From: an uncultured bacterium
GTDB taxonomy: Bacteria; CAYJRR01
DNA length: 64,000 nt
Assembly: GCA_964372275.1 (NCBI GenBank)
Contig: CAYJRR010000003.1
Location: 12,638-76,637 of the forward strand
Direction of reading: 5' to 3'
Shown here: positions 10,334 to 61,243 of the stretch, piece after piece
How positions within the stretch are numbered: the stretch's first letter is position 1
How the letters are laid out: every line of letters starts with the position of its first letter
Notes under the pieces: model-generated
What the model was told of the DNA's origin: nothing
The model's database searches: none
What the model saw: the letters and a program-made list of their open reading frames with translations, nothing else
Translations under genes and position numbers: made by a program

Positions 10334-11000
10334 TCGTCCGACTCTCTGGATCGCGGCGTTGGCGGCGATTGCGGCGTCCGGCTGCGGCGGCGCGCGCTCG
10401 CGGATGGCGAACGCCGCGGCGACCGCCGACGTGCGGCCGAAAGACTACGGGCGGGCGCACACCGAGTGGACGCGGACGGAGAAGGTCTACGACGGGCTGG
10501 AGACCAAGCTGCTCGCCACCGCGACCTACCGGTCGGCGGCCTTCCGCGACGCCTACGTCGACGAATACGCACGGCGATACCTGCTTTCGGAGCCGGCACG
10601 GGACGAGATGAACGCGCGCGAGCACGCGGAGGCGGAGCGCTACCACGAGCTGTTTTTCGCCGCCTACACCGGCGAGACGCGCTGGAACGACTTCTCCAAG
10701 CGCACGTCGATCTGGAAGCTCCGGCTGTTCGACGACCAGGGGGCGTACGTCGAGCCGTTGGTCGTCTCCAAGATCCCCGACGACGATCCGATCACGCGGG
10801 CGTTCTACCCGCAGTTCACCCCCTGGACGCGCGGTTACCTGGTGAAGTTTCCGCGTCCGGGCTTGAGCGAAGCGTCGAAGACGCTGCGGCTCCAGGTGGC
10901 GAGCGCCATCGGAGCGGCGGAGATGACGTTCGACCGGACGAAGGCCGACACCCCGGCCCCCGCAAGGGCGGAGGCGGAAGCCGGCACCGCGGCGCGGTGA
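10320..11000 (+). CDS. Lipoprotein, hypothetical
   Basis: Signal peptide with lipobox IAASGC and a low-complexity-free globular sequence. It overlaps the pyrE 3' end by 14 nt. Confidence 0.5.
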   Translation: MRWPDRPTLWIAALAAIAASGCGGARSRMANAAATADVRPKDYGRAHTEWTRTEKVYDGLETKLLATATYRSAAFRDAYVDEYARRYLLSEPARDEMNAREHAEAERYHELFFAAYTGETRWNDFSKRTSIWKLRLFDDQGAYVEPLVVSKIPDDDPITRAFYPQFTPWTRGYLVKFPRPGLSEASKTLRLQVASAIGAAEMTFDRTKADTPAPARAEAEAGTAAR

Positions 11001-23003: not shown

Positions 23004-23065
23004 CGGGCCGATTTTGGCCTACACGAGTCGTCGTGTCCGGGAAAAATCCGATGCTGTCGATGACC
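22962..23065 (+). repeat. Direct repeat copy 2 of about 105 bp
   Basis: See copy 1. This copy spans the start codon of the membrane-protein gene on the minus strand and the start of yicC on the plus strand. Confidence 0.6.
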
Positions 23066-23989
23066 GGATTCGGCGGCGCCGAGGCGAAACTGCCCGGCGG
23101 GCGCGTCGTGGTCGAGATCAAGTCGGTCAACCACCGGTACCTCGACGTCTCGGTCAAGGGACCTCGCGAATACGCCGCGCTCGAGGCGCGGATGGTCGAC
23201 GCGGTGCGCGGACGGCTGCGCCGCGGGAAGGTCGACTGCTTCGTCACCCGGCTCGTGGAGGAGCTTCCCGAAGGGGGGGTTCGGGTGAACGAGGGGCTCG
23301 CCCGTGGCCTTCGCGCGGCGTTCGAACGCCTTCGCTCCGAGCTGTCCCTCCCCGGCGAGGTCACCCTGGAGATGATCGCGGCGTTTCGCGACGTGGTGGC
23401 GGTCGACGCCGGGGCGGCCGACACCGAGCGTGACTGGCCCGCCCTCGAACGGGCGACGGCTTCGGCGCTCGACCGGCTGGTCGCGATGCGGCGTGAAGAG
23501 GGGCTGCGCCTGGCCGCGAGCCTTCGTGAGCTCGCCGCGGCGATGCGAGCGCTCTGGGGAAGGGCTTCGGCCCGGGCGCCGGCGGTGGTCGAGGAGTCGG
23601 CGGCCCGTCTCAAGGACCGGCTCGCGCGACTGCTGGGCGCCGCCGCCGGTACGGCGCCGGCGGCCGGCGTCAAGCCGGCGGCCGCCGCGGCCACCGTCGA
23701 GGAGTCGGCGCTCGATCCGGGGCGCCTGGCGCTGGAGGTGGCGATCCTCGCCGAACGGTCCGACGTCCACGAGGAGTTGGTGCGCCTGGAAAGCCATTTG
23801 GGGCAGCTCGAGAGTGCGATCGACGCAGGCGGGGAGATCGGTCGCAAGCTCGACTTCCTGTTGCAGGAGATCGGCCGTGAGGTGAACACGCTCGGCTCCA
23901 AGGCCAACGACGCGGAGCTCTCCCGCACGGTGATCGAGATGAAGTCGGTGGCGGAGCGGATCCGAGAGCAGATCCAGAACCTGGAATGA
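23051..23989 (+). CDS. yicC: YicC-family stress-induced protein (YicC N-terminal domain plus DUF1732)
   Basis: MLSMTGFGGAE N-terminus and a conserved C-terminal EIGRKLDFLLQEIGREVNTLGSKAND. Confidence 0.65.
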   Translation: MLSMTGFGGAEAKLPGGRVVVEIKSVNHRYLDVSVKGPREYAALEARMVDAVRGRLRRGKVDCFVTRLVEELPEGGVRVNEGLARGLRAAFERLRSELSLPGEVTLEMIAAFRDVVAVDAGAADTERDWPALERATASALDRLVAMRREEGLRLAASLRELAAAMRALWGRASARAPAVVEESAARLKDRLARLLGAAAGTAPAAGVKPAAAAATVEESALDPGRLALEVAILAERSDVHEELVRLESHLGQLESAIDAGGEIGRKLDFLLQEIGREVNTLGSKANDAELSRTVIEMKSVAERIREQIQNLE

Positions 23990-26038: not shown

Positions 26039-28147
26039 CTACGTGGCGTTTCGGCCGTCGACGGTGACGGTCCCGCGTTCGACGTCGACGAAGATCTTGG
26101 TCTCCCGGTCGGCGGCGATCTCGACGACGCGGTCGGCCTGGAATCCGGCGCGCGCGTTGATGAACTGGAACGCGTGTCGCCCGGCCGGGAGCTCCAGCCG
26201 GCGCAGCGGATCGCCGGCGCTGATCTGGCGGCCGCCGGTCCAGACTTCGACCCACGGGTCGGCGAGCACGGTGATCCACCCGCCGCGCACCGCCCCCGGC
26301 TTCGCCGCCTCGGTGACGGTGCGTGCCTTCGCCGACTCGGTGGGGGTGCGTGGCGCCGCTGCCGGGGTCGTTTCGCCGGCCGCGCGCGCCGTCGCCGGTC
26401 TCCCGACATCTCCGACCGCGATCGAGGGCGCGGTCGGGGCGACGTCGGCGGCGCGGGACGGCGCGGGCCGCTCGACCGACTCCGGCCGTGGCGCGGCGCG
26501 CCGCGTGGCGGGCGTCGACGCCGGCCGGTCCGCGTCGGCGAGGCTCGTGGCGTCGGTGCCCGGCGACCGTTCCACCACCGGCTCGGCGGGCACGGCCACG
26601 GCAATGGCCGTCGCCGGACGTTCCGAAACGACGCCGATCCGGAGACCGATCCCGAGGATCGCCGCCACCGCGCAGATCGCCGCGGCCGCCGCAAGCCATG
26701 TCCGGCGCCGGCGGCGCGGCCGAAGAGGCGCGGCGATTCCGCGGAGCGACCGCATCAGCGCGTCGGGGCGGAGGACGGCGAGCCCGTCGATCTCTCCGCC
26801 GGACCGCCGCGCCGGCACCACCTGGGCGCGTCCTTGCGAATCGACGCGGCAGCGCACCGCCCGGATCGGTTCGGGGCCGCGGGGGCCGACGCTCGCGACC
26901 GGCTGGATTACCGTCTCTTGCCGGTCGTGTTCGCGCTCGTGCTCCTGGACCAGCTCCGCCCAGGCCCGCTCCTCCGAATCTTCGGGCCCCGCCGGCGTCG
27001 CCTCGTCGAAGGCGGCCATGTCGACGCTCGGGCCCAGCCCTTCGGAGGTCACCGACTCCGCGTTTCCGCCGGAGATCACCGTGCCGGTCTCGGCGGCGAT
27101 CCAGGTGACGGGTCCGGTGGAGAGCACCGTCCTCTCGGCCTCCACCGAACCCTCGGGGGAGATCTGGGTCCTCTCCACCGTCTCGGCCCGTTCGATCCCC
27201 TCCGCGCGCCGCTCGTCGCCGAAGTTCTCCTCGAGCAGCCCCGCAAGCAGCGATCGGAACGGGGTCACCGGCGCGCCGAGCAGCCGTCCGAGATCGGCCT
27301 CGACGGCGGCGGCGTCCTGGTAGCGCGCCTCCCGGTCGGCCTGCAGGAGGCGCCCGACGATCGGCCGCACCCGCTCCGGGATCTCCGCCAACGCCGCCGG
27401 CTCCAGACCCTGGAACGCCGCAATCCTCTCGAAGATGGCGTCGCTCGAGTCTCCGGTGAAGAGCCGCCGGCCGGTGACCATCTCGTAGAGCAACAATCCG
27501 ATACCAAACAAATCGCTGCGGTGGTCGAGCGGCCGGAGGTTCGCCTGCTCCGGGCTCAGGTAGCCGATCTTCCCCTTCCAGACGCCGCTCTGGGTCTGCG
27601 CCACGGCGCTCGCCACCTTGGCGATCCCGAAGTCGACCACCTTCACTTCGCCGCGGTAGGAGACCAGGATGTTTTGCGGCGAGATGTCGCGGTGCACGAT
27701 CCCCAGCGGACGGCCGTCGGCGTCGGTCTCGGCGTGCGCGTAGGCGAGCGCTTTGGCGACCTCGCCCGCGATGAACAGCGCCGCCTCGATCGGCATGCGG
27801 CGGCCGCGGTCGGCGAGGCGCCGGAGCAGGTCGCACAGGTCCTGCCCGGCGACGTACTCCATCGCCATGTAGTAGTCGGCGTGGGTCAGACCCGGCCCGT
27901 GGGTGGCGTTGGGATCGCCGACCCCGAAGTCGAAGACCTGAACGATGTTGGGGTGCTCCAGGCGGGCGACCAGCTTCGCCTCCGCGGCGAACATCTCGCT
28001 GTCGGTCTCCCCCAGGAGGTGGGGGAGGATCCGCTTGATCGCGACCACCTTCTCGAAGCCGGCGGGGCCCCGGACGACCGCCTTCCAGACCTCGGCCATG
28101 CCACCGGTCCCGACGCGGCGCAGGAGCTTGTATCGTCCCAGGTGCAT
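26039..28147 (-). CDS. Eukaryotic-like Ser/Thr protein kinase with a TM segment and a C-terminal PEGA-like domain
   Basis: GTGGMAEVWKA, VAIK, HRDISPQNILV and DFGIAKV motifs. TM segment WLAAAAAICAVAAILGIGL. C-terminal WITVLADPWVEVWTGGRQI...RHAFQF. Confidence 0.75.
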   Translation of the reverse strand: MHLGRYKLLRRVGTGGMAEVWKAVVRGPAGFEKVVAIKRILPHLLGETDSEMFAAEAKLVARLEHPNIVQVFDFGVGDPNATHGPGLTHADYYMAMEYVAGQDLCDLLRRLADRGRRMPIEAALFIAGEVAKALAYAHAETDADGRPLGIVHRDISPQNILVSYRGEVKVVDFGIAKVASAVAQTQSGVWKGKIGYLSPEQANLRPLDHRSDLFGIGLLLYEMVTGRRLFTGDSSDAIFERIAAFQGLEPAALAEIPERVRPIVGRLLQADREARYQDAAAVEADLGRLLGAPVTPFRSLLAGLLEENFGDERRAEGIERAETVERTQISPEGSVEAERTVLSTGPVTWIAAETGTVISGGNAESVTSEGLGPSVDMAAFDEATPAGPEDSEERAWAELVQEHEREHDRQETVIQPVASVGPRGPEPIRAVRCRVDSQGRAQVVPARRSGGEIDGLAVLRPDALMRSLRGIAAPLRPRRRRRTWLAAAAAICAVAAILGIGLRIGVVSERPATAIAVAVPAEPVVERSPGTDATSLADADRPASTPATRRAAPRPESVERPAPSRAADVAPTAPSIAVGDVGRPATARAAGETTPAAAPRTPTESAKARTVTEAAKPGAVRGGWITVLADPWVEVWTGGRQISAGDPLRRLELPAGRHAFQFINARAGFQADRVVEIAADRETKIFVDVERGTVTVDGRNAT

Positions 28148-31703: not shown

Positions 31704-31754
31704 TACGGGGTGCTGCGCCGCCCGGGCCGGCGGCCCGAGAGCTCGTTGCCTTTC

Positions 31755-33947
31755 ATGATTCGCCTGAGCGACATCCTCGACCGCGTCGCCGCCCACCATC
31801 CGAACGCCGATCTCGACAGCCTGAACAAGGCGTACGTCTTTTCGGCCAAGATGCACGCCGGCCAACTCCGCAAGTCGGGCGAGCCCTATCTGGTCCACCC
31901 GATGGAGGTCGCGGCGATCCTCGCCGACATGCGGCTCGACGTCCCGACGATCTGCACAGGGCTCCTGCACGACGCCATCGAGGACACGCTCGCCACCTAC
32001 GAGGAGATCGAGGCGATCTTCGGCAAGGAGATCGCCGACCTGGTCGACGGCGTGACCAAGATCTCCAAGATCCATTTCTCCACCAAGGAAGAGCGGCAGG
32101 CCGAGAACTTCCGCAAGATGCTGATGGCGATGGCCAAGGACATCCGCGTGATCCTGGTCAAGCTCGCCGACCGGCTCCACAACATGCGGACGCTCGAGCA
32201 CCTGAACCCCGAGAAGCAGGCCAAGGTCGCCCGGGAGACGCTCGACATCTACGCGCCGCTCGCCAACCGGCTCGGGATGAGCTGGATCAAGTCGGAGCTG
32301 GAGGACCTCTCCCTCCGCTACCTGAAGCCCGACGCCTACGAGATGCTCACCAAGGCGGTCGCCAAGCGGAGAAAGGAGCGCGAAGCCTACATCGAGGAGG
32401 TCAAGCAGCTCCTCTCCAAGAAGCTCGAGGAGTACGGCCTGAAGTGCGAGGTGACCGGCCGGCCGAAGCACTTCTACTCCATTTGGAAGAAGATGGAGTC
32501 CCGCGACATCGAGTTCGACCAGATCTACGACCTGATCGCGTTCCGCGTCCTGACCCGCGACGTGAAGGAGTGTTACGAGGTCCTGGGCGTCATCCACTCC
32601 ATGTGGAAGCCGGTGCTGGGCCGGTTCAAGGACTTCATCGCCATGCCCAAGGCGAACATGTACCAGTCGCTTCACACCACCGTCATCGGGCCGAAAGGGG
32701 AGCGGGTGGAGATCCAGATCCGCACCCGCGAAATGCACCAGATCGCGGAGTACGGTGTCGCCGCGCACTGGCGCTACAAGGAGAAGAACGCCGTCATCGA
32801 CCCGAAGGACGAGCGCAAGTTCGGGTGGATCCGGCAGCTGCTCGAGTGGCAGCGCGATGTCAAAGACCCCTCCGAGTTCCTCGACACGGTGAAGCTCGAC
32901 CTGTTCAGCGACGAGGTCTACGTCTTCACCCCCAAGGGGGACGTGAAGGCGTTCCCCCACGGCGCGACGCCGGTCGATTTTGCCTATTCGGTCCACACCG
33001 AAGTGGGGAACCACTGCGTCGGATCGAAGGTGAACGGCCGGATCGTCCCGCTCAAGTACAAGCTCCGCTCCGGCGACACGGTCGAGGTGATCACCAGTCC
33101 CGACCGCGGACCGTCGAAGGACTGGCTCAACTTCGTCGCCACGTCGCGGGCGAAGGTGAAGATCCGCGGCTACGTGAAGCAGCAGCAGCGGCAGCGCGGG
33201 ATCGAGTTCGGTCGCGACGTCCTCGACCGGGAGCTCAAACGGTTCGGCGCCAACCTGGCGAAGCTGGTGAAGGAGGGGGAGATCCAGCGCGTCGCCAAGG
33301 AGGTGGGCAGCCAGAACGTCGACGACCTCTACGTGCAGATCTCTTACGGAAAGGCCGATCTCACCCAGGTGATCCGCGCCCTGGTGCCGAAGGAGAAGTA
33401 CGAGGAGGTCCGCGCCAAGGCCGGCGACGGACAGAAGGAGCCCGAAACGGGGGCGTTCGAGCGCCTGCTCACCAAGGTGTCCAACGCCGTCGGGGTCGGT
33501 CCGTCGCGGAGCCCGATCAAGATCTCGGACGTCGAGGACATCCTGGTGACGTTCGGCCGCTGTTGCGGGCCGATCCCGGGCGACCCGGTGATCGGGTTCA
33601 TCACCCGCGGCCGGGGGCTCACGGTGCACACCGCCGACTGTCCGCGGGTGCTGGCGAGCGATCCGGAGCGCAAGATCGAGGTGCAGTGGGACAAGTCGGC
33701 AAAGGCCGCGCCGCGCGCCCGGATCAAGGTGGTCTGCGTCGACCAGCCGGGCCTCTTGGCGCTGATCTCCAAGTCGATGAGCCAGGCCGGCGTGAACATC
33801 TCCCAGGCGCAGATCCGGACCACCTCCGACAAGCGGGCGATCAACACCTTCGAGGTCTCGATCCACGACGCGAACCACCTGACGACGGTGATGAAGTCGC
33901 TGGAGAAGATCTCGGGGGTCGTCTCGGTCGAGCGGATCCGGGCGTAA
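31755..33947 (+). CDS. rel: Bifunctional (p)ppGpp synthetase/hydrolase
   Basis: HD hydrolase domain (HPMEVA...HD), synthetase domain (YRSLHTTVIGP...EIQIRT), and the TGS and ACT regions. Start at MIRLSDIL. Confidence 0.85.
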   Translation: MIRLSDILDRVAAHHPNADLDSLNKAYVFSAKMHAGQLRKSGEPYLVHPMEVAAILADMRLDVPTICTGLLHDAIEDTLATYEEIEAIFGKEIADLVDGVTKISKIHFSTKEERQAENFRKMLMAMAKDIRVILVKLADRLHNMRTLEHLNPEKQAKVARETLDIYAPLANRLGMSWIKSELEDLSLRYLKPDAYEMLTKAVAKRRKEREAYIEEVKQLLSKKLEEYGLKCEVTGRPKHFYSIWKKMESRDIEFDQIYDLIAFRVLTRDVKECYEVLGVIHSMWKPVLGRFKDFIAMPKANMYQSLHTTVIGPKGERVEIQIRTREMHQIAEYGVAAHWRYKEKNAVIDPKDERKFGWIRQLLEWQRDVKDPSEFLDTVKLDLFSDEVYVFTPKGDVKAFPHGATPVDFAYSVHTEVGNHCVGSKVNGRIVPLKYKLRSGDTVEVITSPDRGPSKDWLNFVATSRAKVKIRGYVKQQQRQRGIEFGRDVLDRELKRFGANLAKLVKEGEIQRVAKEVGSQNVDDLYVQISYGKADLTQVIRALVPKEKYEEVRAKAGDGQKEPETGAFERLLTKVSNAVGVGPSRSPIKISDVEDILVTFGRCCGPIPGDPVIGFITRGRGLTVHTADCPRVLASDPERKIEVQWDKSAKAAPRARIKVVCVDQPGLLALISKSMSQAGVNISQAQIRTTSDKRAINTFEVSIHDANHLTTVMKSLEKISGVVSVERIRA

Positions 33948-37032: not shown

Positions 37033-38213
37033 AAGACGACCGTCGGACCGACGTTGATCTGGACGTTGCCGCGAGGGGTCGTCTCGTTGTCGATCAGCTC
37101 GAAGATCAGGCGCCCGCGGACCTCGGTCGAAAGCGTCAGCCAGCGGGTGACGTAGAGGCGGTGTCCGAGGCCGAGGACGCCGTAGCCGAAGTTCGCGCCG
37201 TCGATGTAGAGCGGCGCGTCGCACGGCTGCGGACCCTGCGGCTTGCAGATCTCCAGGTCGACGTTGACCACGCCGCCGCCGCCGCGCAGGTAGAGGTCGT
37301 TGCGGCCGGCCACCTGTCCGGTGATGCGGTCGATCGCCGAGAGCAGGTTGGCCTCGACGAAGGCGCCGGCCATCACGTTGTAGGAGGTGATCACCTGCGG
37401 AACGGTCCCCGCCTCGCGCAGCGAAACCAGGAGGTCGGTCTCGGCGTGCTGGGCCCCCAACGCTTCGACGTGGATCCCCCAGGTGCGGCCGAAACGCTGG
37501 GTGGCGGTCATGCCGGCGAGGAGGTGGCGGACGTAGGTCTCCTCCGGAGTGAAGCCGACGACGCCGGCCACTTCGGTGTGCGTCGGCTTACCCACCCCGG
37601 CGGCGCGCGCCGGTGGCCGCTCGCGCGGGGGACGGGACGGCCCCCCGAGCGCGTCGGGGCCGCGCGCGGACTCCCCGCCCGGCGCGGCGCGGGATCCGGC
37701 CTCGGCGGTGGCCAGGCGTTCGCGCGCCGTCGGTCCCGTGCCGCGATCCGGAGCCGAGACGAACGGCGACGGACGGACGGGCGGTGCGATCCTCGGCGCC
37801 AGCGGAGTGGCGACGGCCGGCGTGGGGCCCGGGCGTGGCGTCGCCGATGCAGCGGGCGACGTCCGCGTCGGCGGCGCCGCGCTTTCGCCGAGGATCCGGT
37901 CGAGCTCTTCGTCGGTCGTCACGCCGTCGGAGGAGCCGAGCCCGACCGCCGGAGCGGGGGTCGCGGCCGGCCGTTCGCCCCGGAGCTCGGCCAGGATCTC
38001 GCGGACCTTCGGGCCGAAGCTCGACCCGGGGTACTTCTGCAGGAAGGCCTCCCAGGCCTGCACCTGCTCTCCGGGGCTGAAGTCGGCGACGATCTGCTCG
38101 AACTCGCGGAAGGTCTGCTCGTCCTGGGCGCGGGTCGACTGGGCGACACGCACCGGCTCGGCCGCCGCGAGGCGGGCGGCGAGGAGGAGGCAGAGCGGCA
38201 ACGTCCGACGCAT
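37029..38213 (-). CDS. Secreted protein (signal peptide, Pro/Ala-rich linker, C-terminal beta-rich domain), hypothetical
   Basis: MRRTLPLCLLLAARLAAAEP. The C-terminal 170 aa are globular. Convergent with pyk, overlapping it by 4 nt. Confidence 0.5.
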   Translation of the reverse strand: MRRTLPLCLLLAARLAAAEPVRVAQSTRAQDEQTFREFEQIVADFSPGEQVQAWEAFLQKYPGSSFGPKVREILAELRGERPAATPAPAVGLGSSDGVTTDEELDRILGESAAPPTRTSPAASATPRPGPTPAVATPLAPRIAPPVRPSPFVSAPDRGTGPTARERLATAEAGSRAAPGGESARGPDALGGPSRPPRERPPARAAGVGKPTHTEVAGVVGFTPEETYVRHLLAGMTATQRFGRTWGIHVEALGAQHAETDLLVSLREAGTVPQVITSYNVMAGAFVEANLLSAIDRITGQVAGRNDLYLRGGGGVVNVDLEICKPQGPQPCDAPLYIDGANFGYGVLGLGHRLYVTRWLTLSTEVRGRLIFELIDNETTPRGNVQINVGPTVVF

Positions 38214-38330
38214 TCGACCTCCCTGCTTTCGAGCGGTCGCCCCGACCTCGCTAGGGTACAAGTCCGCCGCCGCCAACGTCAATCGGGGCGCGCCTTGCCG
38301 GGGCAAGGGCGGCGCGTGTTGAATCGGCGG

Positions 38331-39158
38331 ATGGCGGGGTACACGCGACCGGTCTTCCATGGAGCGGGGCTGTACGTGGAGACGTCGCAGGGCGATCCCG
38401 CCGCATGGCCGGCGCTTGCCGAAACGTGCGGCATCGACCCCTACCGGGCGCGGATCCTGCTGGACTCCGGTACCCCTCACCTGTTGGTGGGGATCGCCAC
38501 CACGGAAGAGGCCGAGTCCAAGGCGCAGGCGCTGCGGAAGGCGGGGGTGCACGCCTCCGCCCACGAGGCGGCGGCGATCGACGCGCTTCCGGAGGCGGTC
38601 GAGGCCTCGGGATTCGCCTTCGAGGCGGCGCGACTTCGTTTCGTCTCCGACGCCCCGAGGGGGGGCTCGGCCTCCGGCGCCTGTTTCCACGCGGGGGATC
38701 CCGGGCTCGGGGAGGCGGTCGCGTTGTGCCACGTCGAGACCCCGATCGTGGCGCGGCTCCTGGATTCGGAGCAGGAACGGCGCTACCTGCGTCTGGAGCT
38801 GTGGGGGATCGACGCCGCCTCCCGACCGGTGCGCGTCGCCGTCCGGCAGGACGCGTTCGACTATTCGGGGCTCGGTGCCGACAAGACGCTGTCCGCGCCG
38901 CGCAACTTCCAGACGCTGCGCGCCCGGCTCCGGTCGTTCGCGCCGGCGGCGGCGTTCGACGACGCCTTTCCCCGCACCGATCTGGCGCGCAACCGCTTCG
39001 CGCCGGACACCTGGATCGAGGTCGACCTCGCCACCGGGCAGGCCAAGTCGATCCCTTCGCGGAGCAACCGGCTCGCCTACGAGTACTACGCGCGCCTGCG
39101 CTTCCTCCACGCCCTGCGGCGGCGCGCGCAGGGGGCGCACTTCCTCGAGCTCTCTTGA
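38331..39158 (+). CDS. Hypothetical protein (275 aa)
   Basis: High GC3 in this frame. No recognisable domain. It is the first gene of the glycan cluster. Confidence 0.45.
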   Translation: MAGYTRPVFHGAGLYVETSQGDPAAWPALAETCGIDPYRARILLDSGTPHLLVGIATTEEAESKAQALRKAGVHASAHEAAAIDALPEAVEASGFAFEAARLRFVSDAPRGGSASGACFHAGDPGLGEAVALCHVETPIVARLLDSEQERRYLRLELWGIDAASRPVRVAVRQDAFDYSGLGADKTLSAPRNFQTLRARLRSFAPAAAFDDAFPRTDLARNRFAPDTWIEVDLATGQAKSIPSRSNRLAYEYYARLRFLHALRRRAQGAHFLELS

Positions 39159-39191
39159 CGCGTCCGGCGCCCGCCGCACCTACAGGGTGCC

Positions 39192-40226
39192 ATGCGCATC
39201 GCGGTCGTATCGCCCCTGTTCGAAAGCGTTCCGCCGCGTCGCTACGGAGGGACGGAACGCGTCGTCCATTGGCTGACCGAGGCGCTGGTGCGGCGCGGCC
39301 ACCGCGTGACGCTCTACGCCTCCGGAGACTCGCGTACCGACGCCGGGTTGGTGGCCGGCTGGCCACGCGCCTTGCGGGGGGGCGGTTGCGAGGTCGACGC
39401 GGCGGCGCTACACACCGGCATGCTGCTCCGCGCCCTCGGGAGCCGCGTCGACGTCGTCCATTCCCACGTCGAGTGGCCGGGGATGCTCCTGGCGGGGCGG
39501 GGCGGACCGCCGTTGGTGACGACCCTGCACGGTCGCCTCGACATCCCCGAGTTCCTGGAGATCGCCCGTCGCTGCCCGGAGGCGCCGCTGGTCTCGATCA
39601 GCGACCGCCAACGGGAGCCACTCCCGGAAGCTCGGTGGGTCGCCACCGTCCACCACGGGATTCCACTCGAGGAGCGCCCGTTCTACGCCGATCCCGACGA
39701 CTACCTCGCCTTCGTCGGGCGCGTCTCGCCCGAGAAGGGGCCCGACGTCGCCATCCGCGTGGCGCGCGCGGCCGGTCGCACGCTCCGGATCGCCGCCAAG
39801 GTCAACGGAAGCGCCGGCGATCGACGGTACTGGGAGGCGACGATCCGCCCGATGATCGCCGCGGGGGAGGGGGTCCGGTTCGAGGGGGAGATCGGCGAAG
39901 GGGAGAAGGCGGCATTCATGGGACGGGCCCGCGCGCTGCTGTTCCCGATCGACTGGCCCGAGCCGTTCGGCCTGGTGGCGATCGAGGCGTTGAGCTATGG
40001 GACCCCGGTGATCGCCAGACCGCGTGGAGCGCTGCCGGAGATCGTGGTGGACGGGGAGACCGGGTTCCTGGTCGAGACCGAGGCGGAGATGATCGAGGCG
40101 GTCCGCGACGTGGGACGGATCGACCGCGGGCGGTGCCGGGAGTCGGTCCTCCGCCGGTTCTCGCGGGAGCGGATGGTCGACGACTACGAAGCGGTGTATC
40201 GCGCGCTCGCGGGCAGGCGACCGTGA
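39192..40226 (+). CDS. Glycosyltransferase family 4 (GT-B, group 1)
   Basis: EPFGLVAIEALSYGTPVIA E-X7-E motif. Typical N-terminal MRIAVVSP...GGTE. Confidence 0.65.
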   Translation: MRIAVVSPLFESVPPRRYGGTERVVHWLTEALVRRGHRVTLYASGDSRTDAGLVAGWPRALRGGGCEVDAAALHTGMLLRALGSRVDVVHSHVEWPGMLLAGRGGPPLVTTLHGRLDIPEFLEIARRCPEAPLVSISDRQREPLPEARWVATVHHGIPLEERPFYADPDDYLAFVGRVSPEKGPDVAIRVARAAGRTLRIAAKVNGSAGDRRYWEATIRPMIAAGEGVRFEGEIGEGEKAAFMGRARALLFPIDWPEPFGLVAIEALSYGTPVIARPRGALPEIVVDGETGFLVETEAEMIEAVRDVGRIDRGRCRESVLRRFSRERMVDDYEAVYRALAGRRP

Positions 40227-42427
40227 AACGGTCCGCCCGTTCGGGCTCCCCCGGGGAACTCCCCGAACCCCTGATGCCGGTTCCGGAGCCCGAGGATCCG
40301 TATTCGATCCGCGCGTCGATTCCGGCGCTGATCCACCAGCGCGTCTCGATCAAGCACGGCGACGCGTTCGTCGTCGCCGACCGGCGGGGCGATCTGCCGG
40401 CCGGTGGCGGTGAGACCGGGTTCTATCGCGCGGGGACCCGGCACCTGTCGGCGCTGGAGCTGCGCGTCGACGGAAAGAAGCCGGTCCTCCTCTCCTCGTC
40501 GCTGTCCGACGACGACGTCCTGTTGATGTCGATGGCGACCAACCCCGACGCGGGGAGCGATGGGCTCCCGACCCACTCGCTGTTGTTCGCGCGCGAGCTG
40601 ACGTTGAAGGATGGGCGGCTCTTCGAGCGGATCGAGGTCCGGAGCTTCCACGGCGCCGAGATCGCCCTTCCGGTCGAGCTCCACTTCGCCGCCGACTTCC
40701 GCGACGTGTTCGAGGTGCGCGGCTACCGCCGCCCGGCCCGCGGGGAGCTGCTCCCGCCGGCGACGCAGGATCGCTCGATGGCGACCCTCACCTACGCCGG
40801 ACTCGACGGCGTGGTGCGACGGACGGCGGTCGTGTTCGACCCCGTTCCCGACGTCCTGGAGCCGCTCGTGGCCCGGTTCCGCCTCGTCCTGGCGCCGGGA
40901 AGTTCGAAGACGATCGAGGTCGCGGCCTCGGCCGGTCCGGCCGCGACTTCCGATCCGCCGGCCGTGGGGACGCGCGCCGCCGCGGCGCGTCTCCGCTCTG
41001 AGCACGCGGCGTGGGATCGCGGCGTCACCCGCGTCTTCACCTCGAACGAGACCCTCAACGCGCTCCTCGAGCGGGCCTCCGCCGACCTCCGGCTGATGTG
41101 CACCCGGACGCCCGAGGGGCTGGTCCCCTACGCCGGGATCCCGTGGTACGTCTGCCCCTTCGGCCGCGACGCGATCTGGACGTCGCTGATGGCGTTGAGC
41201 CTCCAGCCGAAGATCGCGGCCGGGACGCTCCGCTACTTGGCGCGGCGGCAGTCGTCCCGATTCGACGACTTCACCGACGCGGAGCCGGGAAAGATCCTGC
41301 ACGAGGAACGGTGCGGGGAGATGGCGAACCTGCGGGAGATCCCGTTCGTCCCCTACTACGGATCGGTCGACGCCACTCCGCTGTTCGTCGTCCTGCTGGA
41401 GCGGTACCTGCGGTGGACGGGCGATGGCGATCTCGCCGGGGAGCTATGGCCGGCGGCGAAGGACGCGATTGCGTGGGTCCTCGGGCCCGGCGATCCGGAC
41501 GCGGACGGCTTCGTGGAGTACCGGCGCCGATCGCCGATCGGCCTCACCAACCACGGGTGGAAGGATTCACACGACTCGGTTTTCCACGCCGACGGCCGTC
41601 TGGCGGAAGGACCGATCGCCCTGGTGGAGGCGCAGGCCTATGCCTACGCCGCCCTGTCGTCGGGGAGCTCGCTCGCCCGGTTGCGCGGAGACGCGGCGTT
41701 CGCCGACGAACTCGCGGAGCGCGCGCGCGCCCTCCGCGATCGGTTCGAGCGGTCGTTCTGGAGCGAGGCGCGCGGCACCTACGCGCTGGCGCTGGACGGC
41801 GAGAAGCGCCGTTGCGAGGTGGTGACCTCCAATCCCGGACACGCACTCTGGGCGGGGATCGCCGATCCGGCGCGGGCCGCGCGGGTGGCCGAGAGGCTTC
41901 TCACGCCGCGCGCCTTCTCGGGATGGGGGGTGCGTACCGTCGCCGAAGAGGAGGCCCGCTACAACCCGATGAGCTACCACAACGGCTCGGTCTGGCCGCA
42001 CGACAACGCCATCCTCACCGGCGGGCTGAAAGCGTACGGAATGCGCGAGGCGGCGGCGCGGGTCGCGGCGTCGGTGCTCGACGCGGCCCAGACGTTCGAC
42101 GACCGGCGGGTCCCGGAGCTGTACTGCGGCTTCGCCCGCACGCCGCGCCACGACCCGACGCCGTATCCGGTCGCCTGCCGACCGCAGGCCTGGTCGGCGG
42201 CGACGCTGTTCAGCCTGGTCCAGACGCTCCTTGGACTTTCCGTCGACGGTCTGGGGGAGCGGGCCGTCTTCGTCTCCCCCTCCTTGCCGCCGTGGATCGA
42301 ATGGATCGAGGTGACGCACCTCGCCGTCGGGTCGAAGCGCGCCGACGTCCGCCTGCAGCGCACGCGCCGCGGCGGCGCGGTGGTGACGCGCACCGGCGGC
42401 GAAGCGAAGGTCGTCGTCCAGAAGTGA
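40223..42427 (+). CDS. Amylo-alpha-1,6-glucosidase-family protein (GDE-like six-hairpin glycosidase with bacterial-type N-terminal domain)
   Basis: GTGA overlap with the GT4 stop. Conserved GIPWYVCPFGRD, LTNHGWKDSHDS and NGSVWPHDN regions of the GDE C-terminal fold. Confidence 0.65.
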   Translation: MKRSARSGSPGELPEPLMPVPEPEDPYSIRASIPALIHQRVSIKHGDAFVVADRRGDLPAGGGETGFYRAGTRHLSALELRVDGKKPVLLSSSLSDDDVLLMSMATNPDAGSDGLPTHSLLFARELTLKDGRLFERIEVRSFHGAEIALPVELHFAADFRDVFEVRGYRRPARGELLPPATQDRSMATLTYAGLDGVVRRTAVVFDPVPDVLEPLVARFRLVLAPGSSKTIEVAASAGPAATSDPPAVGTRAAAARLRSEHAAWDRGVTRVFTSNETLNALLERASADLRLMCTRTPEGLVPYAGIPWYVCPFGRDAIWTSLMALSLQPKIAAGTLRYLARRQSSRFDDFTDAEPGKILHEERCGEMANLREIPFVPYYGSVDATPLFVVLLERYLRWTGDGDLAGELWPAAKDAIAWVLGPGDPDADGFVEYRRRSPIGLTNHGWKDSHDSVFHADGRLAEGPIALVEAQAYAYAALSSGSSLARLRGDAAFADELAERARALRDRFERSFWSEARGTYALALDGEKRRCEVVTSNPGHALWAGIADPARAARVAERLLTPRAFSGWGVRTVAEEEARYNPMSYHNGSVWPHDNAILTGGLKAYGMREAAARVAASVLDAAQTFDDRRVPELYCGFARTPRHDPTPYPVACRPQAWSAATLFSLVQTLLGLSVDGLGERAVFVSPSLPPWIEWIEVTHLAVGSKRADVRLQRTRRGGAVVTRTGGEAKVVVQK

Positions 42428-42450
42428 CGTGTGCTATCGATCGCGTGCCG

Positions 42451-43173
42451 ATGACCTCCTTCGTCGTGTTCGCCAAGGAACCGATCCCCGGACAGGTGAA
42501 GACCCGGCTCACGCCACCGCTTCCACCGGCGGTCGCGGCCGCGCTCTACGGCGCGTTCGTGGAGGACGTCGCCGCCGCGGTGGTCTCCGCGGCGCGGGAG
42601 GGCGATCGCCGCGTGCTCGCCGCGCCGGACGGCCCGGGTCCGGTTCTCCAGGCGATCGCCGGGCGACATGGCTTCGAGGCGGCGGCCCAGGTCGGAGCCG
42701 ATCTCGGAGCGCGCATGTCGAATGCGCTCCGCGCGGAGCTTCGACGCGGATCGGATCGGGTGGTGCTGGTCGGGAGCGACAGCCCGTCGATCCTGCCGGC
42801 GATGCTGCGCCAGGCGGTTGCGGCCCTGGACGACGGCGTCGACGCGGTCCTCGGACCGGCCGGTGACGGCGGGTACTGGCTCGTCGGTTGCGCCCGCTCG
42901 GTGCCCGATCTCTTCCAGGGGATCCCGTGGAGCACCCGGGACGTCCTCGCGACCACCCTCGATCGGGCGAAGGAGCGGGGAATCTCGATTTCGCTGTTGC
43001 CGTTCTGGTACGACGTCGACGACGTCGCCGACCTCCGCATGCTGCACGCGCACCTCGAATGGTCGTCGCAGGCCGGGCGATCGACGGCGCCCTGCACGAC
43101 GGCCGCCCTCGCCGAATTCCGCCGTGCAAATTCGGCGTTTTTCCTTGCCTCTCGCGGGGAGAGCACGCGATAA
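42451..43173 (+). CDS. DUF2064 / TIGR04282-family nucleotidyltransferase-fold 'glycosyltransferase'
   Basis: N-terminus MTSFVVFAKEPIPGQVKTRLTPPL is characteristic. An alternative GTG at 42424 overlaps the upstream stop. Confidence 0.55.
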   Translation: MTSFVVFAKEPIPGQVKTRLTPPLPPAVAAALYGAFVEDVAAAVVSAAREGDRRVLAAPDGPGPVLQAIAGRHGFEAAAQVGADLGARMSNALRAELRRGSDRVVLVGSDSPSILPAMLRQAVAALDDGVDAVLGPAGDGGYWLVGCARSVPDLFQGIPWSTRDVLATTLDRAKERGISISLLPFWYDVDDVADLRMLHAHLEWSSQAGRSTAPCTTAALAEFRRANSAFFLASRGESTR

Positions 43174-43180
43174 CGAAATC

Positions 43181-43678
43181 ATGTGGCGCACCTTCAAGGT
43201 GATCGTCTGGACGGCGGTGGTCGTCTGTAGCGCCGTCTTCGGGGCACGGTTCCTGAACGCGAACCAGGGGTTGGTCAACGTCCAGTTCCCGATGCTCGAC
43301 CGCCAGTCGGGGGAGACGACGCTGGGGTTGGCGTTGCTCTCCGCGGCCGCGGCGGGCCTCGGAGCCGGTCTCCTGATCCTGCTGGTGATCTCCTTCGGGC
43401 TGACGCTGCACGCCGCCAGCCTCAAGCGCGATCTGAAGCGGCTGAAGCGGCAGATCCACAAGCTCGAGCTTCGCGACCTCCCCGAGGAGCCGTTCGACAA
43501 GAACGCCCGGATCGAGGAGGAGGAGGAGGATCGCGACGCGCTCGAGCGGGCGCGCGCCATCGACGTCGTTCCGACCGGACCGGTGCGCGGCGGAAGCACC
43601 GCCGCGCCGATCGGCGGCGAGGACGACGAAGAGGACGAGGCGCCGATCTTCGGTCGGAAGCTCGACCTCCCGCGGTAG
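43181..43678 (+). CDS. lapA: LapA-like (DUF1049) lipopolysaccharide-assembly membrane protein
   Basis: Two TM segments flanking GARFLNANQGLVNVQF, with an acidic C-terminal tail. Confidence 0.55.
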   Translation: MWRTFKVIVWTAVVVCSAVFGARFLNANQGLVNVQFPMLDRQSGETTLGLALLSAAAAGLGAGLLILLVISFGLTLHAASLKRDLKRLKRQIHKLELRDLPEEPFDKNARIEEEEEDRDALERARAIDVVPTGPVRGGSTAAPIGGEDDEEDEAPIFGRKLDLPR

Positions 43679-43684
43679 GTCCCC

Positions 43685-44968
43685 ATGCTGGAGCTGCTTC
43701 TCCACGTCTTCCTGGTACTGGTCGGCGCCGCCCTCGGCGGGCTGGGCAGCTACTTCCTCGCGCGCCACGGCTGGTGGGTTCCGGCCTCGCCGGACCGCGA
43801 TCCGTACTTGAGCGCGCTGACCGCGCTGCTCGACGAGAAGCCGGAGAAGGCGGCCGACATCCTGGTGATGACGGCGCGGCTGAACACCGGCGATCCGGGT
43901 CTCTACCAGGCGCTGGCGGGGCTGCTCCGCCGGATGGGGGAGTTCGGCCGCGCCACGCGCCTCGACCGGATGGTCGCGGTCCGCGAGGACCTGCGGACGG
44001 CGCAGCGCGCCGAGGTTCTCTACCACCTGGCGCTCGACTATCGAGGAGCCGGGCGGCTCCGGCAGGCGCTGGAGAACCTGGAAGAGGCGTTCCGGTTGAA
44101 TCCGCGCGAGGCGCGGACGGGGGCGCTGCTGGTGGAGCTCTACCAGCAGGCCGGGGACGAAGAGCGCGCCTACGAGGTGCTGCTCAAGGTCGGCGCCAAG
44201 GACGACGCGGCGGTGGGCCTGAGGCTGGCGGAGCTGCAGGTCGAGATCGGGCGGCGCCGGATGGCCGCCGACGACCTGAAAGGGGCGCGCAAGCACTTCC
44301 GCCGCGCCGTCGAACATTCACCCAAGGGGTACGCCGCGCGCCTGCACCTCGGGGACGCCTACCTCCGGAGCGGCGAGCACGACAAGGCGCTGGCCGCGTG
44401 GGTGGAGATCCTCGAAGACCGGCCGGAGCTGTTCGGCGCGCTCTATCCGCGGTTCGAGGACGCCTTCTTTTCCAAAGGGGAGTTCGACGAGCTGGGGGGG
44501 TTCATCCGCGACTACCTCTCCGCCTACCGCGATTCGCCGCGGGCGATGCTGATCCTTGCCCGCCACCTGGCGAAGAAGCGCCGCATCGACGAGGCGATCC
44601 GCGAGCTCAAGTCGGCGTTGGCGATCGATCCGGGTTTCGTCGAGGCGCACCGCGAGCTCGGACTGCAGCTCCTCGATCGCGGCACCACCGACGAGATCGC
44701 GGACGCCTACCGGGAGTTCCTGGACCATCTGCCGTCGCTCGTTCCCGCCTACAAGTGCCGGCGCTGCCAGAGCCCGGCCGAGTCGTTCTTCTGGCGCTGC
44801 CCCTCCTGCGCGGCGTTCGAGACGGCGACGCCGACCCGCGCGACCGAGCGCGCGGTGCCGGCGCCGGAACCGGCGCGGCCGGTCGGGTTCCCGGCGAGGC
44901 CGCTGGAGGTCGTGGCGAGCGCGGATGGAGGGCGGGTCCGGAAGGGCGCCGCCAAAAAGCCGGCGTGA
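43685..44968 (+). CDS. lapB: LapB/YciM-like TPR protein with C-terminal rubredoxin-type zinc finger
   Basis: N-terminal TM segment, several TPR repeats, and C-terminal CRRCQS...CPSC. Confidence 0.7.
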   Translation: MLELLLHVFLVLVGAALGGLGSYFLARHGWWVPASPDRDPYLSALTALLDEKPEKAADILVMTARLNTGDPGLYQALAGLLRRMGEFGRATRLDRMVAVREDLRTAQRAEVLYHLALDYRGAGRLRQALENLEEAFRLNPREARTGALLVELYQQAGDEERAYEVLLKVGAKDDAAVGLRLAELQVEIGRRRMAADDLKGARKHFRRAVEHSPKGYAARLHLGDAYLRSGEHDKALAAWVEILEDRPELFGALYPRFEDAFFSKGEFDELGGFIRDYLSAYRDSPRAMLILARHLAKKRRIDEAIRELKSALAIDPGFVEAHRELGLQLLDRGTTDEIADAYREFLDHLPSLVPAYKCRRCQSPAESFFWRCPSCAAFETATPTRATERAVPAPEPARPVGFPARPLEVVASADGGRVRKGAAKKPA

Positions 44969-44987: not shown

Positions 44988-45080
44988 GGAAAATGGAAAA
45001 TTCAAAATGGAAAACCGGCAAGCCGGTCAATGTTTCTGATTGGCCGGTTAACCGGTTTTCCATTTTGAAGTTTCCATTTT
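44988..45080. repeat. MITE/REP-like palindromic element A, built from inverted AAAATGG heptad arrays around a CCGG-containing core
   Basis: GGAAAATGGAAAATTCAAAATGGAAAACCGGcaagCCGGTCAATGtttctgATTGGCCGGttaaCCGGTTTTCCATTTTGAAGTTTCCATTTTC. About 45% GC in a genome of about 72% GC. A homologous copy sits at 61141..61243. Confidence 0.55.
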
Positions 45081-45087
45081 CGGTCGC

Positions 45088-46566
45088 GTGAACGGCCGCC
45101 GGCGATTGAGACGCCGCATCCAAACGTGTTCTGTCGTCTCCCCCGCCCGCGCCGTCGCGCTCGACGTTCTCGACGCCGTGCGCCGTGGGGAGCCCGCCGA
45201 CAACGCCTTCGATCGCGCATGCGCCTCGCGTCCCTCGCTCGCCGCGGCCGACCGCGGCCTCGCGATGGAGATCGCCTACGGCGTCCTCCGCCGCTGGCGG
45301 CGCCTCGACGGCGCGCTCGGGGAATACGCGCGGCAGGGCCTGCCGAAGGAGGCCGGGTTGCTCGACCTGCTGCGCGTCGGCGCCTACCAGCTCCTCTTCC
45401 TCGACCGCGTGCCGGCGCACGCGGCGGTGTCGACGGCGGTCGACGCGGCGCGCGAGCGAGCTCCGCACGCGGCGACCTTCGTGAACGCCGTCTTGCGGCG
45501 TGTGGCGGCGGAGGCGCCACGACTTCGCGCGGCGGTGCCGCCGCCGGAGGACGCGCCGGTGGAACGCCTCGCGGCGTGGCACTCGGTCCCCGACTGGCTG
45601 GCCGAACGGCTCGCGCCGCTGGCGAGCTCCGCGGCAGGTCTGGGCTCGTTGCTCGAGGCGCTCACGCGCCCGGCGCCGCTGTGTCTCCGCGCCACCCCAC
45701 ACGCGGGCGGACGCGACCGGTTGCTCGAGGCGCTCGCGCGGGAGGGAGCTCCGGCGCACGCCGCGGTCCATGCGCCGGACGCGCTGATCGTCGAACGACG
45801 TTCCGTCGCCGCGGGCGGCGCCGCCGGTTCGGAGGTGGCGGACGTGCGCGGGCTGCCGGGATTCGAAGAGGGTTGGTTCACGGTGCAGGACGAGGCGGCG
45901 CAGCTCATCGTCGAGCTGCTGGAGGTTCGGTCCGGCGTCACGATGCTCGACCTCTGCGCGGCGCCGGGCGGGAAGGCGATCCACGCCGCGCATCGCGGGG
46001 CCCGCGTCGTCGCCGTCGACGCGGACGCCGCTCGCCTTCGGCTCGTCGACGAGGCGTCGCGCCGCCTGCGGGCGCCGGTCGAGACGCTCGCCGCGACGGC
46101 CGGCGCCGCCGGCGTCGCGCCGCTCGCCGGGCGCCTCTTCGACCGCGTGCTGGTCGACGCGCCGTGCTCCGCGACGGGGATCCTCCGGCGCAAGCCCGAC
46201 GTGGCCTGGAGGCGGCGACCGGACGACCTCGCGGAGCTTCGCCGGCGCCAGTCGGAGATCCTCGAAGGGGGGGCGAGCCACGTCGCGCCCGGCGGGCGTC
46301 TCGTCTACGCCGTCTGCTCGCTCCTGCCGGAGGAGGGGGAGGCGGTCGCCGACGCCTTCGACGCGCTCCACGCCGCCGGCCATGCCTCGCGCGGAGTGGA
46401 TCGCGGCGCCGTTGGCTTCCGGCGCGTCGACCTGCGCGGTGGGCCTGCGTCGATCGCGCCGTTCGTCACCGCGCGCGGAGACTTCCGCGCCCGGCCGGAC
46501 CTTCATCGGACAGACGGATTCTTCGCGGCGACGTGGATCCGACTTGGAGACGGCCCGCTCTCGTGA
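45088..46566 (+). CDS. rsmB: 16S rRNA (cytosine967-C5)-methyltransferase
   Basis: NusB-like N-terminal domain. SAM motif DLCAAPGGK and catalytic DAPCSATG. The exact start is uncertain. Confidence 0.75.
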   Translation: MNGRRRLRRRIQTCSVVSPARAVALDVLDAVRRGEPADNAFDRACASRPSLAAADRGLAMEIAYGVLRRWRRLDGALGEYARQGLPKEAGLLDLLRVGAYQLLFLDRVPAHAAVSTAVDAARERAPHAATFVNAVLRRVAAEAPRLRAAVPPPEDAPVERLAAWHSVPDWLAERLAPLASSAAGLGSLLEALTRPAPLCLRATPHAGGRDRLLEALAREGAPAHAAVHAPDALIVERRSVAAGGAAGSEVADVRGLPGFEEGWFTVQDEAAQLIVELLEVRSGVTMLDLCAAPGGKAIHAAHRGARVVAVDADAARLRLVDEASRRLRAPVETLAATAGAAGVAPLAGRLFDRVLVDAPCSATGILRRKPDVAWRRRPDDLAELRRRQSEILEGGASHVAPGGRLVYAVCSLLPEEGEAVADAFDALHAAGHASRGVDRGAVGFRRVDLRGGPASIAPFVTARGDFRARPDLHRTDGFFAATWIRLGDGPLS

Positions 46567-46638: not shown

Positions 46639-46986
46639 ATGAGCAGCACCGGCAATCCGATGATCGCGCTGTTGGCGATTCCGGTGGGGTTGGCGGTCTA
46701 CATCTTCTTTTCCTACTGCGCCAAGTTGATCTGCGAGAAGTCGGGGAAGCAGCCGGGGGTCCTGATCTGGATCCCGATCGTGCAGCTGATCCCGCTGATG
46801 GAAGTGGCGGGGATGGCGACCTGGATGATCGTGCTGGCGCTGATCCCGCTCGCCAACATCGTCTTCATCGTCCTGTTGGGCCTCGGACTGTGCAAGGCGC
46901 GGAAGAAGAACCCTGCGCTGGTGGTGCTGCTCTTCCTCCCCTGCCTGAACTTCGTCTTCCTGCCCTACCTGGCCTTCTCGGAATAG
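46639..46986 (+). CDS. Small polytopic membrane protein (about 115 aa), hypothetical
   Basis: Three or four hydrophobic helices (IALLAIPVGLAVYIFF, IWIPIVQLIPLM, LVVLLFLPCLNFVFLPYL). Start at ATG 46639 within the 46591 ORF. Confidence 0.5.
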   Translation: MSSTGNPMIALLAIPVGLAVYIFFSYCAKLICEKSGKQPGVLIWIPIVQLIPLMEVAGMATWMIVLALIPLANIVFIVLLGLGLCKARKKNPALVVLLFLPCLNFVFLPYLAFSE

Positions 46987-61140: not shown

Positions 61141-61243
61141 GAAAATGGAAAATGGAAAATGGAAAACCGGTCAATGGTGAAGCCAAACGGCGCGGGCCTC
61201 ATTTTTCATTGGCCGGTTTTCCATTTTCCATTCTCCATTTTCA
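61141..61243. repeat. MITE/REP-like palindromic element B (AAAATGG x3 inverted arrays)
   Basis: GAAAATGGAAAATGGAAAATGGAAAACCGGTCAATGgtgaagccaaacggcgcgggcctcatttttCATTGGCCGGTTTTCCATTTTCCATTCTCCATTTTCAG. The right end abuts the stop codon of the glycosyltransferase gene. Confidence 0.55.

Follow-up and report, generated by a model that had tools for sequence, protein, structure and literature searches.

The window analyzed here, i.e., a 64,000-nt stretch of contig CAYJRR010000003.1 from an uncultured bacterium, carries on its plus strand a run of six closely spaced genes (Table 1): a hypothetical gene (hyp), a GT4 glycosyltransferase gene, a gene resembling those for glycogen debranching enzymes (GDE-like; assigned below to glycoside hydrolase family GH176), a DUF2064 gene, and homologues of lapA and lapB. 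At a G+C content of ~71%, the window yields noisy raw lists of open reading frames (ORFs); genes were picked via GC3 (third-codon-position G+C) frame analysis together with translation. Each of the six proteins also recurs, residue for residue, among the gene calls of a single 90.5-kb NCBI contig, an independent annotation that thus agrees on their start codons. The domain labels previously given to the GT4, GDE-like, DUF2064, LapA, and LapB products were all borne out by Pfam and NCBIfam. Base composition is even across the region, and the flanking genes identified via Pfam are of a housekeeping nature (relA/spoT, pyruvate kinase, rsmB, guaB, guaA, and dnaE).

Table 1. Features of the six-gene region and its borders, in window coordinates
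Feature	Position	Strand	Remarks
Upstream intergenic region	38202-38330	.	129 nt, divergent, upstream of hyp; presumed promoter region
hyp	38331-39158	+	275 aa
GT4	39192-40226	+	344 aa; Glycos_transf_1 + Glyco_transf_4
GH176 (GDE-like)	40223-42427	+	734 aa; GTG start
DUF2064 / TIGR04282 protein	42451-43173	+	240 aa
LapA-like	43181-43678	+	165 aa
LapB-like	43685-44968	+	427 aa
AT-rich palindromic hairpin element	44989-45081	.	93 nt, 3' of lapB stop
rsmB	45265-46566	+	Pfam; downstream part of conserved syntenic block
DUF5684 gene	46660-46986	+	Pfam; downstream part of conserved syntenic block

The stop codon of GT4 overlaps the GTG start of GH176 as GTGA (...CCG TGA / GTG AAA..., 40223-40226), exactly as the initial annotation had described. 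The other junctions are short: 33 nt between hyp and GT4, 23 nt between GH176 and DUF2064 (within the ~25 nt given earlier), 7 nt between DUF2064 and lapA, and 6 nt between lapA and lapB; the last two spacings are indeed close, but had been put at 8 and 7 nt. Translational coupling, originally claimed for the whole set, thus holds as a true overlap for GT4 and GH176, and for the other genes is a reading of short gaps. Terminator-like sites occur across the region at chance level (5 versus 3.6 expected), with no convincing one within the cluster, and these two features (i.e., short gaps and the lack of a convincing internal terminator) make co-transcription plausible; the six genes are probably expressed as one unit in this genome. 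A 9-bp hairpin (CGCCGAAUU...AAUUCGGCG) and the UUUUU after it occupy 43110-43146, within the final 60 nt of the DUF2064 gene, ahead of lapA; although the hairpin itself (43110-43137) has the look of a terminator or attenuator, its z of -1.8 falls short of significance, and it was set aside. The upstream intergenic region is presumed to hold the promoter, as it is the only sizeable non-coding gap ahead of the cluster; a sigma-70 consensus scan returned 0 sites, including in this interval, for which an Rfam search gave no match.

The glycosyltransferase finds its closest structural counterpart in TeGSS. In phmmer searches of the PDB, GT4 matched the TeGSS entries 7FG9 and 8X3Q at an E-value of 1e-80, collinearly over residues 1-339 of 344 and with 48% identity, against 1e-27 and worse for the next-best PDB family and ~1e-5 for structures of glycogen synthase (GlgA). 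The first PDB homologue after TeGSS is an enzyme that glucosylates tetrahydrobiopterin. TeGSS glucosylates sucrose with UDP-glucose as the donor, giving α-1,2 glucosylsucroses, as does alr1000 of Nostoc; its Y18F and R179A mutants retain almost no activity, and such oligosaccharides accumulate in cyanobacteria under salt and heat stress (PMC9909042). The window protein has Y18, R177, K182, and E257 where TeGSS has Tyr18, Arg179, Lys184, and Glu256; Tyr18, Arg117, Arg179, Lys184, Trp254, and Glu256 are invariant across 73-75 family members (for Arg117, 72 of 73 other members). The two proteins are alike in length, in fold family, and in the residues related to UDP and catalysis, and unlike in their surroundings, with TeGSS adjoining sucrose-phosphate synthase and the window GT4 adjoining GH176. 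Judged by homology, GT4 is most likely a retaining glucosyltransferase of the TeGSS family, putatively of the α-1,2 type.

The GDE-like protein matches GDE_N_bis in Pfam at 172 bits (residues 43-233) and, over residues 359-663, both MGH1-like_GH (67 bits) and GDE_C (38 bits), the GDE_C match, a weak one, being its only relation to the debranching enzymes of GH133; no GH13 transferase domain is present. A single PDB entry was matched, namely 7VMA (TgAMY, the "amylo-α-1,6-glucosidase" of Thermococcus gammatolerans), at an overall E-value of 5e-102, with the catalytic domain accounting for a match at 1e-98 (333 bits, 47% identity over 386 aligned residues). TgAMY is the founding member of CAZy family GH176 (bioRxiv 10.64898/2026.07.01.735942), and the choice left by the initial annotation, i.e., between GH133 and the bacterial GDE_N_bis subgroup, thus resolves to GH176. 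Within this family, the enzyme of Arthrobacter humicola A8F5 is the only one with direct product analysis: it is a strict inverting α-1,2-glucosidase, active on kojibiose through kojitetraose and on selaginose, and it tolerates varied sugars at +2, selaginose being a case in point (bioRxiv 10.64898/2026.07.01.735942). The same source reports that every kojibiose-binding residue is kept in TgAMY, which has an exo-type pocket, that GH176 contains several large clusters without known function, and that the family may belong to clan GH-G together with GH63. The window protein's match to MGH1-like_GH, mentioned above, is to the Pfam family of the GH63 mannosylglycerate/glucosylglycerate hydrolases.

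The A8F5 site was mapped onto the window protein by motif and spacing rather than by direct alignment, and the 12 kojibiose-site residues so identified (R315, D316, H360, E361, W446, D448, Y585, H586, W591, E632, Q655, and W657) are shared with TgAMY and do not vary among 15 homologues (alignment A1). The motifs of the catalytic acid (Asp), base (Glu), and fixer (Asp) are likewise all present, spaced as in A8F5. The two proteins thus share a CAZy family (via homology to TgAMY) and active-site motifs with their spacing; unlike the window protein, A8F5 possesses a long capping loop 3 and sits in a small cluster of its own. The window protein instead aligns without gaps to the short loop 3 of TgAMY, a loop form associated with a more open site (bioRxiv 10.64898/2026.07.01.735942), which suggests the same for GH176 here. 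TgAMY is its closest solved relative, with identical active-site residues and equal loop lengths, but is 620 aa long versus 734 aa, and the N-terminal domains can barely be aligned (13.9 bits). Taken by its family and site residues, the window GH176 is a putative exo-α-1,2-glucosidase. The conserved TeGSS-type partner (see below) and the kojibiose-site residues further indicate that the label "glycogen debranching enzyme" is probably wrong and that the substrate is something else; a substrate other than glycogen had already been proposed for this protein, and this much stands, though not the lapAB context that had been given as the reason.

In most of the loci sampled, GH176 has the same companion. 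A scan based on a GH176 alignment, with one genome per species, provided 80 loci among the matches listed, with relatives 32-49% identical in genome and metagenome scans, from Methylomirabilota, Nitrospirota, Acidobacteriota, Verrucomicrobiota, Chloroflexota, Planctomycetota, Bacteroidota, Cyanobacteria, Actinomycetota, and many Proteobacteria. In 74 of these 80 loci, spanning >10 phyla, a TeGSS-like GT4 gene is present no more than 10 kb from GH176; in 54, it is the same-strand gene directly upstream. These GH176-linked GT4 proteins are full-length and 45-55% identical to that of the window, with TeGSS itself 41-52% identical to them. DUF2064, LapA, LapB, and hyp were found near GH176 in none of the 80 loci, and GH13-like genes in 3 of 83, with none in the 64-kb window. 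It is thus GT4 together with GH176 that forms the conserved functional unit, tied in these loci to neither lapAB nor glycogen genes, and on this genomic evidence we are confident in the pairing. No recurrent glg-like cluster was seen near GH176, and the 64-kb window yielded no glycogen or lipopolysaccharide (LPS) genes, glgA, glgC, and glgP not having been searched with queries of their own.

Certain clades elaborate on the pair. In loci of the Bradyrhizobium/Nitrobacter/Xanthobacteraceae type, GT4 on the minus strand is followed by a divergently oriented, MsbA-related ABC exporter gene on the plus strand, then by GH176, a PRC-barrel-like gene (~185 aa), and an MFS transporter gene; this split order was seen in nine loci (L030, L037, L047, L051, L057, L083, L022, L059, and L043, at ~6.7-14 kb in most). 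In Nitrospiraceae (L006, L021, and L046), one or two MFS genes of the 2A0121 H+ antiporter type lie beside or between GT4 and GH176. Transport of a product or primer may thus matter in some clades, although ABC exporter and MFS neighbors were rejected as general partners of the pair, being clade-restricted. Single GH13-like ORFs occur directly 3' of GH176 in a Pedosphaera metagenome-assembled genome (L036, ~10511-10816) and in a member of the Rhodospirillales (L074, ~12146-12457); these might be active on sucrose or α-glucan, hinting at the acceptor there. A convergent relA/spoT gene stands directly beside the pair in a Nitrospirae genome (L002, 12259-14436), and the window's own relA/spoT (31710-33947) lies ~4.4 kb upstream of the cluster, a proximity that is perhaps coincidental.

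Both enzymes belong to recently characterized families, and the TeGSS paper is silent on GH176, as is the GH176 preprint on the TeGSS family; our literature search found no paper on both. Their pairing across phyla joins one of the large GH176 clusters without an assigned function to a homologue of the cyanobacterial glucosylsucrose synthase in most of the genomes sampled, and offers a new lead that is modest but useful. Thousands of bacterial proteins carry the labels "glycogen debranching enzyme" or "amylo-α-1,6-glucosidase," and the pairing should be of use in re-annotating those that are GH176 members. If the assignment is true, carriers of the pair (among them Nitrospira, Bradyrhizobium, Nitrobacter, Methylobacterium, Pseudomonas fluorescens, Acidobacteriota, Verrucomicrobiota, and Chloroflexota) would make and recycle α-1,2-linked gluco-oligosaccharides, i.e., stress sugars documented mainly in cyanobacteria. 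Cultured carriers among the loci include Pseudomonas fluorescens PS833, Xanthobacter autotrophicus 7C, Bradyrhizobium cosmicum, a Methylobacterium sp., and Pelagerythrobacter rhizovicinus.

The window's own lineage shows the remaining genes in a different light. Close relatives were found in metagenomes only, with GH176 63-65%, LapB 72-81%, and DUF2064 55-61% identical. DUF2064 is directly upstream of lapA in L001, L084, L169-L173, and one JGI contig, and the order lapB-rsmB-DUF5684(-guaB) is found in L169, L171, L172, and L173; in L169 and L170/L171, the arrangement reads dprA-topA-DUF2064-lapA-lapB-rsmB-DUF5684-guaB, without the glucoside enzymes. DUF2064-lapA-lapB is thus part of a core syntenic block that includes the unrelated rsmB, DUF5684, and guaB. 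As the gaps between topA and DUF2064 measure only 5 and 17 nt (L169 and L170), tight packing to whichever gene lies upstream is a property of this block. Reciprocally, hyp-GT4-GH176 is followed by a Ser/Thr kinase gene in L085 and by an unrelated ORF of >812 aa in L174, and we are confident that this module moves independently of the DUF2064-lapAB block. Where the two meet, as in L084, the order is hyp-GT4-GH176-DUF2064-lapA-lapB. In L001, a gene for a S-adenosylmethionine-dependent methyltransferase (5741-6592) is interposed between GH176 and DUF2064, a single case that raises the possibility of methylated glucosides there. Since lapB-rsmB-DUF5684-guaB is just as conserved in this lineage, synteny within it says little about function; conserved adjacency at such shallow divergence is weak evidence of a shared role, and an operon-like, tight junction with lapAB can arise without one.

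The hyp protein accompanies GT4-GH176 in the lineage of the window. It gave no match in Pfam, NCBIfam, or PDB profiles, and its family is rare (30 representative clusters in 1.8 billion). In an AlphaFold2 (AF2) model with a pLDDT of 85, a bL12-CTD/ClpS-like N-domain is joined to a PH-like C-domain, with no enzyme fold; Foldseek comparison of the whole protein against the PDB yielded nothing significant, and an earlier single-sequence AF2 model (pLDDT 37) was discarded. It is probably a soluble, lineage-restricted accessory protein of a non-enzymatic nature. No signal peptide or transmembrane segment was predicted for hyp, GT4, or GH176.

For the DUF2064 protein, PF09837 was matched at 110.5 bits (cutoff 25.8), TIGR04282 at 187 bits (cutoff 134), and PDB entry 3CGX at an E-value of 1e-30, indicative of a GT-A or nucleotidyltransferase-like protein; a literature search on DUF2064 found no paper. 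A scan for DUF2064 provided 80 distant loci among the matches listed, with lapAB, GT4, and GH176 near none of them. The usual partners there are an rSAM/selenodomain protein (11 loci) and a GT2 glycosyltransferase (10 loci), both of which are missing from the window and the lineage contigs. The LapA-like protein matches LapA_dom at 31.0 bits (cutoff 28) and has transmembrane-like segments at residues 4-26 and 47-82 along with an acidic C-terminal tail. The LapB-like protein has a transmembrane segment (residues 1-26), an array of tetratricopeptide repeats (TPRs), and a Zn_ribbon_LapB match (25.0 bits) with rubredoxin-type C358xxC361 and C372xxC375 motifs; it is collinear with the NCBIfam LapB models over their full length (6-386/388, E-value 2e-54), but at 185 bits it falls below the equivalog cutoff of 363, and is best regarded as a distant orthologue candidate rather than a certified equivalog. 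As in lapA(yciS)-lapB(yciM) of E. coli, a two-transmembrane LapA_dom protein is thus followed, here after 6 nt, by one with a transmembrane segment, TPRs, and a rubredoxin-type domain; the window pair differs in the sub-cutoff score of LapB and the long acidic tail of LapA, and its lineage differs in having DUF2064 ahead of lapAB throughout. By resemblance, the LapA/LapB-like proteins presumably keep their usual inner-membrane role in the control of LPS synthesis, with a putative part in LpxC turnover.

Taken together, we consider it reasonably probable that the region is composed of two functionally independent modules, which in this genome are probably co-transcribed. In module 1 (hyp-GT4-GH176), the two enzymes would form a cytoplasmic make-and-break pair for an α-linked glucoside. 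GT4 would most likely add α-1,2-linked glucose from UDP-glucose to a sugar primer, yielding products of the glucosylsucrose or kojioligosaccharide type, and GH176 would most likely strip these α-1,2 glucoses from the non-reducing end via an inverting mechanism. The pair would in this manner control a cytoplasmic oligosaccharide pool, the likely role of which, by analogy with cyanobacteria, is that of a stress protectant or reserve. As the acceptor rim differs from that of TeGSS, the primer is probably recognized differently. In the α-1,2 specificity, we are only moderately confident. Module 2, i.e., DUF2064-lapA-lapB(-rsmB-DUF5684-guaB), would be a core-genome block of this uncultured lineage, and the placement of module 1 next to lapAB a facultative, lineage-specific state of gene order, on present evidence an accident rather than a pathway.

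A comparable organization is known from synthase-hydrolase gene pairs for compatible solutes, such as ggpS and gghA (slr1670) in Synechocystis, where a cytoplasmic hydrolase is likewise encoded beside the synthase of a soluble α-glycoside (PMC5002435). GghA was rejected as a relative of the window GH176, since it belongs to GHL5, and the analogy is therefore organizational only. GgpS, for its part, is a GT20 rather than a GT4 enzyme.

Several points weigh against this interpretation. (i) The activities of all GH176-linked GT4 proteins and of the GH176 subgroup present here are predicted ones. (ii) The acceptor rim of GT4 differs systematically from that of TeGSS, in which Trp10, Tyr70, Glu74, Thr119, and Asn122 are replaced by F10, A70, H74, D117, and F121 of the window protein; with these five sucrose-contacting or acceptor-rim residues exchanged, sucrose is not established as acceptor, and the acceptor, and conceivably the linkage, could differ. 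His74 and Asp119 (TeGSS numbering) are in fact the consensus of the GH176-linked GT4 group, which does not keep the fructose-stacking Trp10, and TeGSS is the most divergent sequence of the set. (iii) No sucrose genes turned up in the 64-kb window, nor do any recur near the GT4-GH176 pair; a sucrose-phosphate synthase gene was looked for, and not found, beside the cyanobacterial (Thermostichus) pair. (iv) The window GH176 is nearer to TgAMY (47% identity) than A8F5 is (29.6%), and TgAMY was originally reported as active on α-1,6 branches, via indirect assays, according to the preprint (bioRxiv 10.64898/2026.07.01.735942). (v) The MsbA-like exporter between GT4 and GH176 hints that a product or precursor may cross the membrane in some lineages. 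(vi) GT4-GH176 is upstream of DUF2064-lapAB in five contigs (the window, L001, L084, L173, and the JGI contig), such that some selective reason for co-expression of the juxtaposed blocks is possible.

The exchanged acceptor rim would also fit a genuine alternative, namely that the same make-and-break logic serves another α-glucoside, e.g., a glucosylated trehalose (selaginose-like), a solute of the glucosylglycerate or glucosylglycerol type, or a glucosylated small molecule, with export possible in some lineages. This we regard as rather unlikely for the window, though it draws on several of the above observations: the rim is consistently unlike that of TeGSS, sucrose-phosphate synthase and other sucrose genes do not recur near the pair, the A8F5 enzyme accepts different +2 sugars, the next structural homologue of GT4 acts on tetrahydrobiopterin, and MFS or ABC transporter genes are repeatedly seen in certain clades. 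Against it, the residues of GH176 that bind kojibiose (Glc-α-1,2-Glc) at -1 and +1 are all kept, and their conservation favors a Glc-α-1,2-Glc unit somewhere in the substrate.

Less tenable is the default annotation, according to which GH176 would be an archaeal-type amylo-α-1,6-glucosidase acting on branches of glycogen or maltodextrin, and GT4 a synthase of the glycogen or α-glucan type; we deem this improbable. It could appeal to the Pfam GDE_N_bis and GDE_C matches, to the activity on branched maltodextrin reported for TgAMY, to a weak similarity of GT4 to the NCBIfam glgA models, and to L086-L088, where GH13/CBM48 genes lie 2.5 kb downstream. However, the α-1,6 assignment of TgAMY rested on indirect assays and has been questioned (bioRxiv 10.64898/2026.07.01.735942), and its exo-type pocket has all of the kojibiose-binding residues. 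GH13-like genes are near GH176 in just the 3 of 83 loci counted above, GT4 is far closer to TeGSS than to GlgA structures, and a PDB sequence search with the window GH176, at E-values up to 10, returned no eukaryotic-type GDE chain.

The initial annotation had instead proposed a role for GT4, GH176, and DUF2064 in making or trimming an envelope glycolipid or oligosaccharide, in coordination with LPS assembly via co-transcription with lapA-lapB. To this we give very little credence. The short gaps and lack of a convincing internal terminator do make co-transcription likely, the juxtaposition recurs in four other lineage contigs, lapA has DUF2064 directly upstream of it throughout the lineage, and some Alphaproteobacteria carry an MsbA-like exporter gene inside their GT4/GH176 cluster. 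The co-occurrence of GT4, GDE, and DUF2064 with lapAB, put forward at the outset as a check of this proposal, was nonetheless found nowhere beyond one narrow lineage (0/80 loci from the side of GH176, for lapAB or DUF2064; 0/80 from the side of distant DUF2064, for lapAB, GT4, or GH176), and even within this lineage, the blocks are found apart. There, lapB-rsmB-DUF5684-guaB is equally conserved, and topA is as tightly packed against DUF2064 as GH176 is. Furthermore, predictions place the enzymes in the cytoplasm as soluble proteins, and the characterized GT4 homologue, TeGSS, makes a soluble oligosaccharide. A composite, in which the lineage DUF2064 is a true LapA/LapB partner (e.g., a nucleotidyl- or glycosyltransferase acting on an LPS precursor or in the LapB circuit) and its operon has also taken in the α-1,2-glucoside module in about half of the lineage contigs sampled, strikes us as highly doubtful; were it true, the cell would regulate LPS synthesis jointly with a drain of UDP-glucose into a cytoplasmic glucoside, in a program of the envelope-stress or desiccation kind.

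Just after the lapB stop lies the AT-rich palindromic hairpin listed in Table 1, with an RNA folding energy of -75.8 kcal/mol (z -9) and the shape (GAAAATG)n-GAAAACCGG-TCAATG...CATTGG-CCGGTTTTCC-(ATTTTCC)n. It is likely a terminator or REP-like element that closes the transcription unit. In relatives without the palindrome, rsmB begins 2-24 nt after lapB, and the 296-nt lapB-rsmB spacer of the window thus looks like an insertion. A second copy of the element (61141-61242) lies between genes for a transketolase and a GT1-like protein. A match of the first to the Rfam family mir-341 was weak and was dismissed as spurious.

Elsewhere in the window, Rfam detected one tRNA. A 95-nt tRNA-Leu(CAA) called by ARAGORN at 23577-23671, within a yicC-like ORF (23051-23989), is probably a false positive, as it has no Rfam match at the gathering threshold. 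Two eukaryote-type Ser/Thr kinase genes, one with PEGA domains, and a bactofilin gene (1044-3842, 26039-28099, and 9354-9746, respectively) lend the window a Myxococcota-like flavor.

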